Source: Octopus vulgaris (lineage: Eukaryota). From it: 64,000 bases of DNA. The DNA lies in assembly GCA_951406725.2 (NCBI GenBank), contig OX597814.1:64728001-64792000 (forward strand), in the 5' to 3' direction. The notes under the pieces are model-generated. The model saw only the letters and a program-made list of their open reading frames with translations. It was not told the origin of the DNA and made no database searches. The position numbers and the translations under genes were made by a program. Shown here one piece after another: positions 3,732 to 51,582 of this stretch (position 1 is its first letter; every line of letters begins with the position of its first letter).

Positions 3732-3775
<44 letters not shown>

Positions 3776-3782
3776 TATATAT

Positions 3783-4022
3783 ACTTTATTAAAAAGCAGC
3801 AAAAATATCACAAAAACTGTTACTCAGAGTTTCACGCTCCCGTTCGTTGGAGAAACTTGTATACTTTACTTTCTAATCAAAACTGTCCGACGAAGAGGAA
3901 CGTGAAACTCTGAGTAACAGTTTTTGTAATATTTTTGTTGCTTTTTAATAAAGCATATTACTCTATTTCTGGTATTCGAGTACTATTTTTTCCACCTCAC
4001 TTCGCATTTATGTGTTTACTCT
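3783..4022 (+). mobile_element. Fold-back (hairpin) element in (TA)n tract, Penelope pLTR-like, copy 1 of 3
   Basis: Inverted arms 3783-3850 and 3886-3955, plus a ~65-nt unpaired tail shared with copies at 22895-23040 and 37316-37465. Confidence 0.8.
3879..3924 (+). ncRNA. Minimal type I hammerhead ribozyme-like motif with CCGACGA core
   Basis: Stem I aaaactgt/acagtttt, core CCGACGA, short stem II (acg/cgt in the inverted arm copy), GAAA, near-palindromic stem III actctgagt, GUA cleavage triplet. Confidence 0.65.
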
Positions 4023-4190: not shown

Positions 4191-4192
<2 letters not shown>

Positions 4193-4583
4193 CGCAGGAA
4201 TGGCTGTGTGGTAAGTAGCTTGTTTACCAACCACATGGTTCCGGGTTCTGTCCCACTGCGTGGCACCTTGGGCAAGTGTCTTCTATTATAGCCTCGGGCC
4301 GACCAAAGCCCTGTGAGTGGATTTGGTAGACGGAAACTGAAAGAAACCCGTCGTATATATGTATATATATATATGAGTGTGTGTGTGTGTGTGTCTGTGT
4401 TTGTCCCCCTAGCATTGCTTGACAACCGATGCTGGTGTGTTTATATTCCCCGTTACTTAGCGGTTCGGCAAAAGAGACCGATAGAATAAGTACTGGGCTT
4501 ACAAAAGAATAAGTCCCGGGATCGAGTTGCTCGATTAAAGGCGGTGCTCCAGCATGGCCGCAGTCAAATGACTGAAACAAGTG
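4191..4583 (+). mobile_element. tRNA-derived CORE-type SINE (octopus OR-like) with LINE-derived tail
   Basis: A box tggctgtgtggtaag, B-box-like gggttctgtccc, CORE-like ccttgggcaagtgtcttct, internal (TA)/(TG) tract, tail ggtgctccagcatggccgcagtcaaatgactgaaac. Confidence 0.85.
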
Positions 4584-15079: not shown

Positions 15080-16659
15080 CAGTTGCGGCATTGCTTTCGT
15101 CAGAAAAGTAGGTATAAGTTTTTATCAAAGTTGTTTTATATTCTATAATTTTCACATACAATAAATACGATATTATTTGTTATTGTCTGAGATTTTGGTG
15201 TAATTTGAGACGATAATGAAAAAGTTATGGATGATTTAGTGATTTACTGCAAAACCCATGGCGGCCAAAATGATCAGAACGGTTGCTTTTACTCCATGTT
15301 TTAGTATATTTAACAGTCGAACTCTAATGTTTTGAATTTGTTTACGTGACAGTTTGTTTACTAAACATTGGTAAGAATGTTAATATAATGCCACTTACTC
15401 CGTTACCAATTCGTCAGCAGGTTATTAAGCTTCGAAAGAAGGATAATTTAAGTATTAGGTCTATTGCGAAGATTGTTAACAAGTCAAAAAGTGATGTTCA
15501 CGGTATTCTTAAGGTCTACGATGATTGTGGTTCGTGTGAAGCAAGAAAGTCTACAGGCAGGCCAAGAAAAACGACCAAGAGAGAAGATCGTGCTATGGTA
15601 AAGTTGGTTAAAAAGGACAGATTTAAAACTGCTGCTGCTGTTTTTCATGAAATGAGCATTGTACTGAAGAAAACTTTATCTCGAAGAACTGTCTTGTCGT
15701 TTAGTTGAACATGACCTACAAGCAAGAGCACCTGCAGTGAAGCCACTGATCAGTTCCAAGAATAAAAAGTGTCGTCTTACCTTTGCAACCGAACATGTGT
15801 TGTGCTCTCAAAAAAAATGGCAAACGTTGCATTTCAGTGATGAATCTAATTCTATGTTATTTGGTTCAGATGGGAAAAGGTACGTTCGTTGAAAAGCAGG
15901 TGAAAAATTGTCACCTAAATGCCTTAAGACGTGTTAAATTCGGTGGAGGAAGTGTCATGGTTTGGGGGATGATATCTGGAGATGTTGTGGGCCCTTTGCT
16001 GCGATTACATGGAAAGGTAAATGCAGGAGTTTATAAACAACTTGTAAAAGATCATGTCTTGCCTGTGCTGAGAAATTCAACTAAGCGACCACCCATATTC
16101 ATGCAGGACAATGCCCCATGTCACAAGGCTAAGGTGGTCAAGAACTTCCTCTAGGCTGAAAAGGTTATTGTTATGGATTGGCCTGCTCAAAGCCCAGACC
16201 TCAATCCTATTGAAAATGTGTGGAATATTCTAGGAGAACGTTTGAAAGCCAGAAATCCTAAAACAACTGAGCAATTATGGAATGCCCTTCAGGAAGAATG
16301 GAATAAGATCACCCAGCAAGAATTTGAAAATTTAATTTCCCCATGCAGTCAAAAATGTCAAACTTTGATTGAAGCTAAAGGGCTTCACACTAAATATGAA
16401 ATAATTCCAGCATTCTCTGTCACTTTTTGATTATTTTGTTATTTTTTCAACCGTTCTGATCATTTTGGCCACCAAGGGTTTTGCAGTAAATAACTATATC
16501 ATCCATAACTTTTGTATTATCCACTCAAATTACACCAAAATCTCAGAAAATACCAAGTAATATTGTATTTATTGTCTGTGAAAATTATAGAATATAAAAC
16601 AACTTATACCTACTTTTCTGACGAAAACAATGCCGTTCTGAACATTTTGGCTGCAAATC
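15080..16659 (+). mobile_element. Tc1-family DNA transposon (DD34E) with ~200-bp IR/DR terminal inverted repeats
   Basis: TIRs 15080-15284 and 16449-16659, flanked by TA. Internal direct repeat ggccaaaatg(a/t)tcagaacgg. Encloses a transposase pseudogene. Confidence 0.95.
15388..16430 (+). pseudogene. Tc1 transposase, frameshifted with an in-frame stop
   Basis: Paired-like HTH, GRPRKT, FSDES, FGGGSVMVWG, FMQDNAPCH, WPAQSPDLNPIENVW. 34 residues between the second D and E. Confidence 0.93.
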
Positions 16660-22894: not shown

Positions 22895-22897
<3 letters not shown>

Positions 22898-23040
22898 TTT
22901 ATTTAAAGCAGCAGAAAATTCAACAAAACCTGTTACAGGTTTTGTTGAATTTTCTACTGCTTTAAATAAAGCATATTACTCTACCACTGGTATTTGAGTA
23001 CTCTTTTTTCCACCTTGTTTCACATTTATGTGTTTACTCC
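22895..23040 (+). mobile_element. Fold-back element in (TA)n, copy 2 (1-nt loop)
   Basis: Near-perfect hairpin centred at 22934 plus the same tail as 3955-4022. Confidence 0.8.
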
Positions 23041-23091
<51 letters not shown>

Positions 23092-25442: not shown

Positions 25443-26168
25443 GTTTAAATATTTGTTGTGCAAGATTTTTTATGTGAAGTCGTGTGTTGAAACAGATATT
25501 GTTATATTTCGGAATGGTCATATTGCCAGTTTAGCAAATAAAAACACACGCACTATATATTTGGTGTTATTTTGCTTCAGTGATATTTATTTTTTACATT
25601 AATCTTAATCTTATTTCGGCCAAAGTTCTTTCGTCACACTCCTGTGACCGCATCAGTGGTCCTTTGTTTTCTTCTCACTTACTTGTGTCTCTCCTTACTA
25701 ACCGTCAGCCATTTTGTATTTCTATTGTATGTCTTCATTTGCGCATGCTTATATCTCTATGCGCGTCTATGTTTATTTAGTGTGTGTGTGAGGGGGATGC
25801 CTGTAATATTTGTATCTTCTGGTTATATACATTCTTGTAATTTGTATTTTGTTTTTGTTGTTGTTGCTTTTGTTCTAATTTTGTTCATGTGTTTACATCC
25901 ACCCATTATTATCATTACATATGCTTGTATGTATGTATAACAACAATATTAGTAATAATAATAATAAATCTAATATATATATATATATACACACACATAT
26001 ATATATATACATATATATATATATACATATATACACACACACATACACATATACATACACACATACATATATATAGTTATTCATTTCTATTTCTTTAATT
26101 ATCTGTGTATTTATTATGTTTGCAGGATCCACTATCGTCATATGTTGTGGTGTGCGCTATTGCTCCAA

Positions 26169-26840
26169 TTTGATAATATATTATGTAATGATAGGAATGG
26201 GATTTGCCCACTCTATAGGAACAAGTCATGGAACACTATAGAAAGGACAAAAAAGAAAATAGGGAAGGCCAACTCTTGGTATGATAGCCATAAATACCAG
26301 AGTGTCATGTTCGTTGACACCACCCCTGGAGGTGAACTGGCGTACCGCTTTAGAAGGACCCTAGATAAACTTAAACTAAGAATTAAGGTTGTTGAAAAGC
26401 CAGGCAACCCTATCAGATCTATAATTGGTAGAAGCTATCCTTTTAGTAGAACTCTCTGTACGGATAACTATTGCACTGTATGTAGATTTAGCCCACAAAC
26501 AAACTGTAAAGCCAGAAATGTGGTCTATAGTATAAGATGTATAGAGGGACGATGCAGTAACAAGACAGTAACATACGTAGGGGAAACAGCAAGAAGCATT
26601 GGTGAGCGGGTGAATGAACATTGGAGACAACTCAAGGAAGGTAAAAGCTCATCGATTCTGTACCAACACGCTGAACAAGAACACGGGGGATCAATCAATA
26701 ACATAGAGATTAAGATATTGTCCACACATAGAACAGATGCAACAATTAGACAAATTACAGAAGCTACACATATAATAGAAAATAAACCTAGCCTGAATAG
26801 AAAACTAGGATGGAGCAATAGCGCACACCACAACATATGA
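26169..26840 (+). CDS. C-terminal part of a Penelope-like ORF: Cys-rich linker plus GIY-YIG endonuclease (5'-truncated, frame intact)
   Basis: VMFVDTTPGGELA...CTDNYCTVC...NCKARNVVYSIRC..C...YVGETARSIGERVNEH...SSILYQH...RQITEATHI..NKPSLNRK..W. The ORF-track start (MLWCALLL) is an artefact of the inverted arm. Confidence 0.9.
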   Translation, partial: FDNILCNDRNGICPLYRNKSWNTIERTKKKIGKANSWYDSHKYQSVMFVDTTPGGELAYRFRRTLDKLKLRIKVVEKPGNPIRSIIGRSYPFSRTLCTDNYCTVCRFSPQTNCKARNVVYSIRCIEGRCSNKTVTYVGETARSIGERVNEHWRQLKEGKSSSILYQHAEQEHGGSINNIEIKILSTHRTDATIRQITEATHIIENKPSLNRKLGWSNSAHHNI

Positions 26841-26976
26841 CGATAGTGGATCCTGCAAACATAATAAATACACAGATAATTAAAGAAATAGAAATGAATA
26901 ACTATATATATGTATGTGTGTATGTATATGTGTATGTGTGTGTGTATATATGTATATATATATATATGTATATATA

Positions 26977-27027
<51 letters not shown>

Positions 27028-27343
27028 TTCAATTAGATTTATTATTATTATTACTAATATTGTTGTTATACATACATACAAGCATATGTAATGATAATAA
27101 TGGGTGGATGTAAACACATGAACAAAATTAGAACAAAAGCAACAACAACAAAAACAAAATACAAATTACAAGAATGTATATAACCAGAAGATACAAATAT
27201 TACAGGCATCCCCCTCACACACACACTAAATAAACATAGACGCACATAGAGATATAAGCATGCGCAAATGAAGACATACAATAGAAATACAAAATGGCTG
27301 ACGGTTAGTAAGGAGAGACACAAGTAAGTGAGAAGAAAACAAA

Positions 27344-27388
27344 GGACCACTGATGCGGTCACAGGAGTGTGACGAAAGAACTTTGGCC
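27344..27388 (+). ncRNA. Hammerhead-like motif in Penelope pLTR (CUGAUGC variant); mirror copy at ~25618-25662 on minus
   Basis: cca-CTGATGC-G-gtcac-aggagt-gtgac-GAAA-gaac-TT-tgg. Confidence 0.6.
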
Positions 27389-27952
27389 GAAATAAGATTA
27401 AGATTAATGTAAAAAATAAATATCACTGAAGCAAAATAACACCAAATATAAAGTGCGTGTGTTTTTATTGGCTAAACTGGCAATATGACCATTCCGAAAT
27501 ATAACAATATATATATATATATATATTACTTTCCAGTAAAATTTATCCCCATAAGGGTAAAATTATACTGGAAAGTAATACATTTGTATTGCATTATTAT
27601 TTTCATTGAAACTTCTTCACTGCTTTCGTTCTGTTAACGTTTTGGCGTTCAGACATGTGTACTGGTATTGATGTGGCAACATTTGAAATTTTGTCTAGGT
27701 AAATGCAGCTGATGTAGACTAATCAAATTTATGTTGTCAAACATATTTGAAGAGTTAGAAACCGGTCCTGCATTATCCGTATCTAGGTTGCCCATTTATC
27801 GAATGTTCTTCCTAGAGGTAAGACAATTTTTTTTCATGTTTGCTGCACACACGCGTCTTTGCTAGTATATACGCGGTGAAGCTATATAATAGCGTCGTAT
27901 TTATATCGATTGCTATTTTCCAGTAAATGTTTGTGCCTTGTTATACCATTTA

Positions 27953-34268: not shown

Positions 34269-36689
34269 TGCACACACAGACACATGAATATGCAGAATAG
34301 ATAGATAAACAGATATATAGATACATGCATACGTGCACACACGCATACATACATGCATACACACACATACATACGTACGTGTATGCATGCATGCATACAT
34401 ACATACATACATATATTGATACATACATATGTGCATACACAAGAACACATGTACACTGACTTACACACATGTACACAAACAGACAAAAATTGACGCAGCT
34501 CCAATAATGGACTGAGTCAACATCCATTGACAAGGTTGCAAAAGGCAACGAAAATTTTGGAAGAAAAATGTATAAATAATAATAAATGAGTGGAAATCGA
34601 CAATGATTCTCCCCAGACACAGTATAATTTGCTTCGACACACGAATTTACATAGAGAATCTTGCAAACCAGATACAAAAAGGAAGTAATATACTTTTTGT
34701 TTTTATCGTTTAATTGTTCGTCATGGGACTACAGTCAAGGCTCCATGATTAGTAAATCGGTAAGTTAGCCAAAGTGTCAAATACGAGCGAGTTGTATTGC
34801 TCGCAGTAGTAAATCTAATACTGATTTAAGAGACTAACAAAGGAGTTACTTGGTATCCCAGTGGTCACTTGGCAAGCTATAAATAGCAACCAAATGTTTC
34901 TTCACTCCAGTTATGCTCTCTCAAAAAAATGAGCTCTTGGATAATGAAATCATGGTGAGCTTTATTTGGATAAAAGATGTGATGGTAATGGTTGGCACAT
35001 TTTGACAAGATTTTCTTGAACCTGTTTTGGCACTGAGAATCAGCAACAGCTTAACGTTTATATGAGGATATTTAATAAACAGCTTTGAGAGAATAACTAA
35101 ATATATGTCCTCGGAAAACATTAACTGAAGACGTAAAATATGATGTAATAACAACGTGTGTGATAACATATTTAATGCAATGAGTTCCGATATTTTCATC
35201 AAATTATACCCATATTGAGGAGAGAAATATAATGTTAATGATTAAGCCTTAAAAAAGCTGGTACTAAAAGCAGAATTGGTATTTAAATGAAGATTATATA
35301 AGAAAAACAAAACAGAAAGCAATTGGGTATCAGTCCGGTCTGTCATGGTGCGGTGGCAACTCCCTGCATGTTTCGTCTTATTAAAATACATCAATGAATT
35401 ATCTACCAGATCTTAGAATGGCCACAGGGAATGTAATAGTTTAATAAATTAATGGCTTGCTAACTTACAACAATGGAGGTTAGAAATTGGTTTCAGAGAT
35501 TGTTATATGACGGTTAATTATTTGAAGAACTGCGGCAAATGAAGGACGATCTGGAAAATAAGATACAATTTTGAAACTTTGAATACTTAACATTAACACA
35601 GCGGATGATATTTCTCGCTTGAAAAAGTATTACCACGACCAACTGTTACAAATATTAAAGGAATATTATCAAATTGTGACTTAATTAAAATATTTGTGTG
35701 ATTACTAGTTGGCGGGCGAGCTAGCGGCATCTCAGCTTAACTTTGAACAATACTACGTGTTATACTTGGTTAAACATAATCACTTCAGATGTGGGTTTAT
35801 TCTGTATTTTGATGGACACGATCGGTTGAAAATACATAAAGGCTTTCGTGATAAAGGCTGTCGAATGAATCGTTCATCCGTAACGTTGCAACTGTGTGAA
35901 ATAGTTTCTATATGCAAAATCCCCACCTAGGGCTATAAACATCAGTAGCATATATGTTACAGCTCCGTACTCCCACTGTTTATATCTCGCTCAGAGATTT
36001 AATATAACATTTTCTCTCTTCTACGAGATCTGCGACAGTGGGTCGCAAGAAAAATATACAGTAATTTAGGAGTGGAATGAGCTTCCATCACTAGCTGGTG
36101 ATTAACAGACGCCTAGGACAGGTAACCACTAAGAAACTCGAGTCTGTGTGTATCACGTAAGGCTAGAGATGGGATCGATAACTTCCCCTCGCAAATACTA
36201 ATCGGACACAGAATGTGTGTCGTTAGCCAGCTGGAGGAGATGTCTTAAACATCAGCAGCACTATCCTATATAGGACGCCACACTTAGTTGGCATATATAT
36301 GTTACGGTATATATATATACACGTTCATATACACGCTATGCATAAATATACATATATGCATATACATACATATATACATATATATGAAATATATATATAT
36401 ATATTTAATTTATTATATATATATTGTTTAACGTACACAGTATATAATTATGTGCTACTAATAGTTTCATACATTGAAGAAATCATCTAGGCATGTTTAA
36501 AAAGACACCTAATGTCTCCAATAATCTTTAAGCGTTGACACATAGCCTATACAAGTTACAAATCAGGACGATAGAAGAAGAGAAATCATAAGAAAATTCG
36601 CAGTGAAGGTGGGTTCAAAAAGTGGAATAGTGAAATAGACAGGAAGAGAAAGGAAAAAATACGATAAGCCGAACGAGAAACTGTCCTAC

Positions 36690-37050
36690 TTACACAAACT
36701 GTCCTGCCATCGCCATCACAAGTGTGTAAAAGTCTGAGAGTTAACATTAGCAATAAGGGATCCTACTTCTCTTCTAAAGAATGTTTTGATAAACTAGCCC
36801 CCTATAACAATGCCTTAGCTAGCAGTGGTTTCAAATATAAGTTATAGTACAACTCTTCTAATAATAATACGGTTGATAACGATAAACTTTAGAATAGACC
36901 TAGGAAAGTAATTTGGTTGGCCTACTCCCATCTCCCTAAATGTTAAGACTAACGTAGATAAAAGATTCCTGTCTCAGGTAAATATCTCTCAGAAAATCAC
37001 AAATACAGGCAGATCTTTAACAGATACCGAATTGAATTATCATATAGCTA
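36690..37050 (+). pseudogene. Decayed Penelope-like ORF fragment (post-RT thumb/linker)
   Basis: Frames give YNNALASSGF, NRPRKVIW, SLNVKTNVDKRFL and ENHKYRQIFNRYRIELSYS, matching the PLE motif RxIIWFNPPxSxNVKTNxGKxFL...HKIFNRxxxKxSYS. Confidence 0.75.
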
Positions 37051-37285: not shown

Positions 37286-37562
<277 letters not shown>

Positions 37563-50899: not shown

Positions 50900-51582
50900 C
50901 CTAAAAGTCACTTATCCAAAACTATCACCGGTTTAATATTCATATTTTAACACGTATGACCAAATCGATCTAGAAGCAAAGAATTGATGCTGCTCTTAAA
51001 TTAGATTATACAGTAGAAACCTTAACTCTATGGAAATTTGATTACACATCTAAAAATCATTCAATGTAAATTAACCAACCGCGTCATAGTAGAATTAAGC
51101 ATAATCTGTAGTAATATACTTTGTCCATTTATTCATAGGACTAGTAAAGTTGCACATCACCCTCTGCGGCATAATTGCTTCTTAGTAATATAATGATCTA
51201 GAAATATCCACAATTAATCAAATTGTTTGTTTACTTAGTTTGATATGGTGGATTTCTATCTTTCTATCACTAAGCCACCTCTTCTAAAAAATGCGTTTTT
51301 CATTAATACGATCTTATGCTTTCTTCCCTTGTGTTGTATGAGGTACGTTGCAAACTATACTGTTATGGATTGATAGAACCATTGTATATACAGTTAAAAT
51401 TATATGATACTTCCAGGCAATCTTTCTTTGTTTCATACTTTTAATTAACCTCTTCCTTTCTGTTTTAAGCACAGCAAAAACGGCACACATTGTTATATGT
51501 GTGTGCGTTTATCTAAAGGATATCCGTCAGTCAAGGACGAACATTTGTTTGCAACTAATCACGATTCAGCCAGCTTGCCGCC

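Follow-up and report, generated by a model that had tools for sequence, protein, structure and literature searches.

Hairpin insertions of a Hydra-clade Penelope-like element at (TA)n repeats in Octopus vulgaris, whose arms mostly run past the predicted hammerhead cut

The three hairpins found in a 64,000-nucleotide stretch of the Octopus vulgaris genome (contig OX597814.1; the whole stretch is called the window below) are solo-pLTR insertions of a Penelope-like element (PLE) that its motifs place in the Hydra clade. As an object the hairpin family is ordinary, being a newly found member of a described clade (a PLE stub). Its value lies in the histogram of its arm ends, which provides genomic counts and in which the inserted cDNA nearly always passes the predicted cut of the hammerhead. 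The hairpins probably arose from two cDNAs, one primed on each strand of a (TA)n target that had been nicked; both would have been copied from uncut RNA as far as the likely start of its transcription and were likely joined by microhomology. This account is built on the layout of the parent open reading frame (ORF) and pLTR, two fixed 3' ends at (TA)n, the end histogram, the independent lengths of the arms and the short overlaps at the junctions, all of which were read directly.

The original prediction ascribed one design to the three copies and the sequence bears this out: each consists of (TA)n, a short inverted arm starting from CTTTATT, a long arm with a tail of ~70 nt, and a TA-rich microsatellite (Table 1). 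The other ends of all three copies are also flanked by TA-rich repeats. No fourth hairpin copy was detected by blastn of the whole window. Positions in the family are expressed relative to the predicted cut, 0 being the first base after the GUA (window 3917 in copy 1). The cut is crossed by both arms of copy 1 (-31 for the short arm, -45 for the long one). The long arm of copy 2, which with its tail is 96% identical over 115 nt to the parent pLTR at locus L178, was expected to start exactly at the cut; a start at 22935 is possible, but the match of the short arm to the template continues for 3 nt beyond the cut and the arms overlap by AC (2 nt), which leaves the junction ambiguous. For copy 3, a long-arm start about 3 nt after the cut had been given, and the arm indeed starts between +2 and +5, but the short arm passes the cut by 12 nt into the GAAA. 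From the arm ends of copies 1 and 3, two of the three window copies therefore already carry cDNA across the cut.

Table 1. Positions in the window of the three hairpin copies and of the hammerhead motif of copy 1.
Feature	Position	Strand	Remarks
(TA)n target left of copy 1	3736..3783		Sequence
Copy 1, short inverted arm	3784..3851	-	Inner fixed site (AATAAAG end, +37) to -31; crosses the cut
Copy 1, junction filler	3852..3870		19 nt; contains TATACTTTA
Copy 1, long arm	3871..4022	+	From -46/-45, in the hot spot of the family, next to the Inr-like site; subfamily A
Copy 1, type I minimal hammerhead motif	3879..3924	+	Stem I 3879-3886/3917-3924; predicted cut between 3916 and 3917
Copy 1, hammerhead parts	3887-3893; 3894-3903; 3904-3907; 3907-3915	+	CCGACGA; decayed stem II; GAAA; palindromic helix III
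Copy 1, tail	3954..4022	+	Between two fixed ends (71 nt in the parent)
Copy 2, short arm	22897..22936	-	Maximal extent -3; AC overlap with the long arm
Copy 2, long arm and tail	22935..23042	+	From the predicted cut; subfamily B; junction type rare in the family
Copy 3, short arm	37318..37366	-	Runs to -12, across the cut
Copy 3, long arm and tail	37364..37465	+	From +2 to +5 via a short overlap; subfamily A

The TATACTTTA within the filler of copy 1 looks like a second, aborted start of the short arm. Tiny pieces of this kind, at junctions or before short arms, were seen at window 3852-3870 and at loci L033, L043 and L074, and are like aborted starts at the inner priming site. Directly after the (TA)n of copy 1, at window ~4191-4360, lies a dispersed repeat also present in the flanks of many loci, which we take to be an octopus SINE. 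Long inverted repeats occupy window 25496-27510 (589-nt arms, 94%) and 15128-16605 (158-nt arms, 92%), and are possibly palindromic insertions of other elements.

Copy 1 had been described as containing a full type I hammerhead fold. Stem I, CCGACGA, GAAA and the palindromic helix III are present, but stem II of the long arm is decayed, reading AGAGGAACGT with two substitutions relative to the ACGGGAACGT of the other copies, so that copy 1 as it stands lacks the full fold. Rfam scans detected no hammerhead in copy 1, in the young copy L178, or among the best 150 of 328 rows for the whole window. Across the family, the hammerhead positions C3, G5, A6, G8 and A9, the GAAA, the UH and the pairing of stem I are all found. 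The G10.1-C11.1 pair closing stem II is absent, 10.1 being A and 11.1 being A, G, T or C depending on the subfamily. In the youngest group, 29 of the 32 copies have the core CTGATGA (U4); in the next one, 15 of the 16 copies have CCGATGA or CCGACGA, and in subfamily A the core is mostly CCGA, with CpG decay. These counts identify C4 as the master state of older subfamilies; the anticipated replacement of U4 by C is thus not the mutation of one copy, but it does not extend to the most abundant young subfamily, which has U4. Dimer-cleaving variants of PLE hammerheads are reportedly the subject of a 2017 paper, and C4 in these elements may therefore have been published already.

The proposal that the hairpins derive from the pLTR of a PLE was confirmed by the recovery of its parent in the genome, with a frame of 727 codons of RT and GIY-YIG type. 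Walking upstream from long copies, we crossed a 3' UTR of ~1.07 kb and then entered the ORF. A protein search yielded 8,276 candidates, of which 150 were scored, and the 727-codon frame is intact in dozens of them with 98-99% identity. Near-identical intact frames (~99%) are found, for example, at L175, L178, L181, L183, L184 and L190 (G000). The parent is a very young PLE that was likely active recently. Its single ORF (711 aa from the Met) would encode an RT together with a GIY-YIG-type endonuclease (EN) at the C-terminus, an assignment based on motif comparison since Pfam and PDB sequence searches returned no match to the ORF. The motifs align by eye with the Hydra alignment in the supplement of PMC8557442. 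In the available text of that paper, the Hydra clade is defined by RWK, a change of DKG to DKT, the lack of CCHH, a CxCX5C linker, and C-terminal CxxC and CxH. In the octopus frames, RWK and DKT occur as RRLRWKAFF and NSDKTRN, the cysteine pair between VVY and YTG is absent in 20 out of 20, and the C-terminus carries CxxC and CxH (CRH). The linker reads CNCKNESSC in 13 of 29 frames, CNF in 15 and CNY in 1, its second cysteine being polymorphic. By its predicted motifs the parent belongs to the Hydra clade; the Neptune clade, our first guess, was dropped because the motifs fit Hydra.

At 6 of 20 ORF loci the pLTR stands directly upstream of the ORF, in sense, as a partial tandem comprising the hammerhead and the tail. 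At L178 the Inr-like A (838) is followed by the cut (885), the AATAAAG end (921), the tail end (992) and the ATG (1060). With an ORF of 2.1 kb, the 3' UTR and the pLTR, the parent is ~3.4 kb long. Insertion into (TA)n is seen on both sides: 46 of 57 short-arm starts read TATA/CTTT, and 77 of 115 long-arm ends run into TA. Long insertions (L151, L152, L155, L156) are kilobase palindromes with the same two outer ends. The parent ORF was found for subfamily B only, that of copy 2. Copies 1 and 3, of subfamily A, are tied to it by 80-83% identity in the pLTR, and subfamily A shares non-coding upstream sequence over ~800 nt, a stretch ending short of the ORF. Two further segments of the window, 36654-37048 and 51062-51289, have weak tblastn matches to the Hydra ORF (E ~1e-5, 32-34% identity) and are putative fragments of other PLE families.

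In the 2.8-Gb genome, a 29-nt motif from the tail is matched exactly 5,206 times and its reversed control 0 times, which puts the family far above chance. Hairpins are also made by a sister family that shares helix III but has another stem II (seen, for example, at G000:C8:81055538 and to the right of L020, in its flank). The sample used for the end histogram was chosen by tail motifs only and comprised 35 of the 38 matches of one set and 99 of the first 100 listed among the 5,206 (the 100th being window copy 2); removal of two duplicates left 132 copies. Not counted were L077 (the locus of L031), L084 (a duplicate of L081), the three window copies, and L001-L030, for which the query used biases the 5' end. 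Among the 3 long arms assigned to the cut, L096 was kept although it looks like an alignment artefact. Short arms were scored in 67 hairpins of the sample, those of the long copies (extending beyond -61) not being among them.

The fold-back point had been predicted at the hammerhead cut; the histogram places the hot spot at -47 to -41 instead. Of the 132 long arms only 3, and of the 67 short arms only 1, have their end no more than 3 nt from the cut, for uniform expectations of 5.7 and 2.7, respectively; 37 of the long arms (p = 7e-17) and 35 of the short ones (p = 3e-22) end at -47 to -41. When both are pooled, 4 of the 164 arms reaching the cut stop there and 72 of the 104 reaching -41 stop by -47, with only 3 of 199 ends in the interval -54 to -48. 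Beyond -61 extend 23 of the 132 long arms, and at least one arm crosses the cut in 62 of the 67 hairpins. The hot spot is present in all four subfamily groups. It is also found in copies with no called short arm (11 of 35, p = 4e-5), so that it is not the product of the CTAG palindrome alone. Equal-width patterns run over the genome retrieved 79 hairpins whose fold lies at the cut or just 3' of it, 111 with the fold in the stem II window and 482 with the fold at the upstream site; the junction of copy 2 is therefore rare. Older subfamilies contribute 144 hairpins at the upstream site (A combined with C/D; type A accounts for about 8 of the first 50 listed), and 6 hairpins of subfamily A are folded at the cut. 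Inserted copies likely come from uncut RNA and stack at its likely start site.

Position -47 is the A of CC/ATTCT, a word similar to the initiator (Inr) consensus. We find it fairly probable that transcription starts there, because this Inr-like word is kept, as (C/T)ATT(C/T), while the sequence upstream differs among subfamilies, because the hot spot is common to all groups, and because the D. virilis Penelope has a TATA-less internal promoter in its pLTR (PMC2377424). Full-length L1 5' ends carry a cap-derived extra G, as stated in the available text of PMC11702581, and the octopus junctions hint at the same at -47. GA(A/T)TC occurs at 15 of the first 50 listed junctions of the hot spot against 1 of 50 for a perfect AATT; a cap-derived extra G would explain this excess, together with several G's absent from the template. 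The signature is mixed, however: at (TA)n junctions, the extra base is G in 7 and C in 5 cases at -47, with 0 cases at -46 and 2 + 2 at -45, and in older subfamilies no excess of G is clear. Less favourably, a DPE-like ACGTG departs by one base from the spacing of Drosophila, and the youngest subfamily lacks it. In File S2 of PMC8557442, TCAGT, TCATT or CCATT stands within 20 nt before stem I in 5 of the 26 Hydra rows, as counted by eye and without a chance test; starts a short way upstream of the hammerhead may be widespread among Hydra-clade elements.

It is rather unlikely that the -47 edge marks an RNA-processing site or a structural stop of the RT within a longer transcript. Ends do thicken from -38 towards -47, and stem I and an A-run lie just downstream of the edge, as such a stop would have it. 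Yet the 5' side of the edge is sharp, the initiator-like word is conserved while the sequence upstream varies between subfamilies, inspection by eye found there neither a conserved splice-acceptor AG nor a second hammerhead core, and a non-template G is present at some junctions (L202, L216, L219, L222).

In the favoured model, the (TA)n target would be nicked and one cDNA would be primed from each target strand, at two fixed sites of the RNA, +37 and +108. That each fixed end is a start site of the RT is quite likely, by analogy with the in vitro behaviour of PAc, the Poseidon element of Anolis. Both cDNAs would then copy uncut RNA to its 5' end, likely -47, and their far ends would be joined by microhomology. 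Where priming takes place in the downstream pLTR of a full-length transcript, the arms would run on into the 3' UTR and the ORF, yielding kilobase palindromes. It is about as likely as not that a single RNA gave rise to both cDNAs, with the tail-primed cDNA displacing the inner one or stalling at it. The inner ends of the arms are independent: of 67 hairpins, 27 have a short arm that extends more than 5 nt further 5' than the long one, 13 show the opposite, and in 27 the two ends lie within 5 nt of each other (sign test on their reach, p = 0.04). Where the short arm extends further and the tail is in the long arm only, neither arm can be a copy of the other. The junctions show an overlap of 1-6 nt in 30 of 67 hairpins and filler or unaligned bases in 31. 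Independent ends and joins by microhomology make the two-cDNA model the best one. The stops of several long arms, at +21 to +51, lie close to the inner start, which resembles L1 twin priming. The two start sites are also combined in other ways: at L091, L175, L202, L215, L224 and L225, one arm contains the tail in part only or begins past it, in sequence on the side of the ORF.

Haplotypes of the two arms were compared at 7 sites. Of 37 pairings, 26 are identical, 9 differ at 1-2 sites, 1 old copy differs at three, and one joined two separate insertions. The subfamily haplotype common to both arms in young copies fits one RNA or one source locus; an origin of the arms from RNAs of different source loci is unsupported, given the 26 identical hairpins. 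More tentatively, the hairpins, in their thousands, might be in vivo snapshots of one capped, uncut RNA primed twice, at fixed sites and from opposite target strands, with both cDNAs extended to the cap.

For rotifer PLE palindromes, self-priming on an antisense template was proposed (PMC3846280). The octopus data call for no such process, and that one octopus cDNA folds back and copies itself, or is self-primed in this manner, seems improbable to us. Such a process would account for the arms ending at most 5 nt apart in 27 of 67 hairpins and for their common haplotype in young copies, but symmetric ends are also expected if both cDNAs reach the same RNA end. Moreover, in the 27 hairpins with a further-reaching short arm, this arm has sequence missing from the long arm, which holds the tail, and the start of the short arm is a constant base abutting (TA)n. 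These 27 hairpins are also poorly explained by one RT that turns round at the cut, as first suggested.

The underlying idea that the ribozyme generates the template's 5' end, where the RT turns round, is refuted as a general rule and has very little left in its favour. Copy 2 fits it, helix III is able to pair between two RNAs (about -7.5 kcal/mol), and among the first 50 listed hairpins of the cut window 11 have the junction of copy 2 and 3 read CTG(A/T)CAG. Against it, 160 of the 164 arms reaching the cut run past it, so the arms, as a rule, are no genomic footprint of in vivo cleavage; the 79 hairpins of the cut window do not exceed those of the window beside it (111, of which about 9 of the first 50 listed resemble the sister family); the blunt join TGTACA expected from two cleaved templates occurs in 0 of the first 50 listed; and the junction of copy 2 can also be read as an imperfect GTTAC/GTAAC overlap (4 of 5) of two uncut ends. 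Because of the 11 hairpins sharing the junction of copy 2, a small fraction of the inserted copies may still come from cleaved RNA. A MITE or master hairpin moving as a unit is refuted as the origin of the family and has hardly any chance: the same CTAG junction does recur in 28 of the first 50 listed hot-spot hairpins, but arms are unequal rather than fixed symmetric terminal inverted repeats, junction types are many, and the copies are continuous with the 3' UTR and ORF of an RT-bearing PLE. A non-LTR retrozyme (head-to-tail tandem, no ORF) was excluded, the arms being head-to-head and continuous with an ORF-bearing parent.

As far as the available text of Craig et al. 2021 (PMC8557442) goes, the octopus family shares with Hydra-clade PLEs the C-terminal EN, RWK, DKT, the lack of CCHH and CxCX5C, as well as the (TA)n target and a hammerhead in the pLTR. 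The same source describes inverted 5'-truncated copies and a one-sided tail in PLEs, and in its File S2 the coral Hydra-2_aMil has the same ctgt / actc-N-gagt / a/acag layout as the octopus hammerhead. The family is distinct from Hydra-1_Obim, which has another hammerhead and protein. Relative to the Hydra-clade elements in these parts of the paper, the parent is longer than their tendency of <3 kb, its tail has 71 nt against 30-40, C4 cores contrast with ctga in all 26 rows of File S2, and thousands of solo-pLTR hairpins set it apart.

According to the available text of Frangieh et al. 2024 (PMC11167929), the PAc protein nicks and extends both target strands in vitro, starts reverse transcription at two sites bounding the tail, uses mainly uncut RNA and inserts without need of hammerhead cleavage. 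Two fixed ends bounding the tail and an AT-rich target are common to PAc and the octopus family; the PAc data are in vitro and from another clade, whereas the octopus family provides genomic 5' ends and the inverted arm. The minimal type I hammerheads of metazoan PLEs, as seen in the available part of Cervera and de la Pena 2014 (PMC4209133), occur in opposite-strand pairs 100-700 bp apart and have low activity. Their location in the pLTR and palindromic helix III are found again in octopus, where G10.1-C11.1 is lacking, stem II has 2-3 bp with a GNRA loop, and C4 occurs in older subfamilies. With L1 twin priming, in the sections available of PMC11702581, the hairpins would share a second cDNA primed internally off the other target strand and joining by microhomology, with a hint of the extra G found at full-length 5' ends; they would differ by a fixed second start and by the overlap of the two cDNAs into a palindrome. 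A natural U4C viroid hammerhead was much slower in vitro and tolerated in vivo (available text of Perreault et al. 2011, PMC3088659); in octopus the ribozyme is predicted, and C4 is fixed in high-copy retrotransposon subfamilies.

Our search of the open literature returned no earlier mapping of twin-primed or inverted Penelope tails, or of octopus Penelope-like palindromes at microsatellites. The origin of the inverted ends of PLEs and the role of their hammerhead are called open questions in the available texts of PMC8557442, PMC3846280 and PMC11167929. The genomic counts of arm ends agree with the in vitro result on PAc, and the family suggests a testable start site and a two-primer model. 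Its parent, which looks recently active, could serve for in vitro studies of Hydra-clade elements. If the hairpins are indeed snapshots of a capped RNA primed twice, they would explain the head-to-head palindrome and the one-sided PLE tail without an antisense template, and a transcription start would have been mapped from DNA alone. Cleaved RNA would then almost never be inserted, and weak C4 cores could therefore persist.
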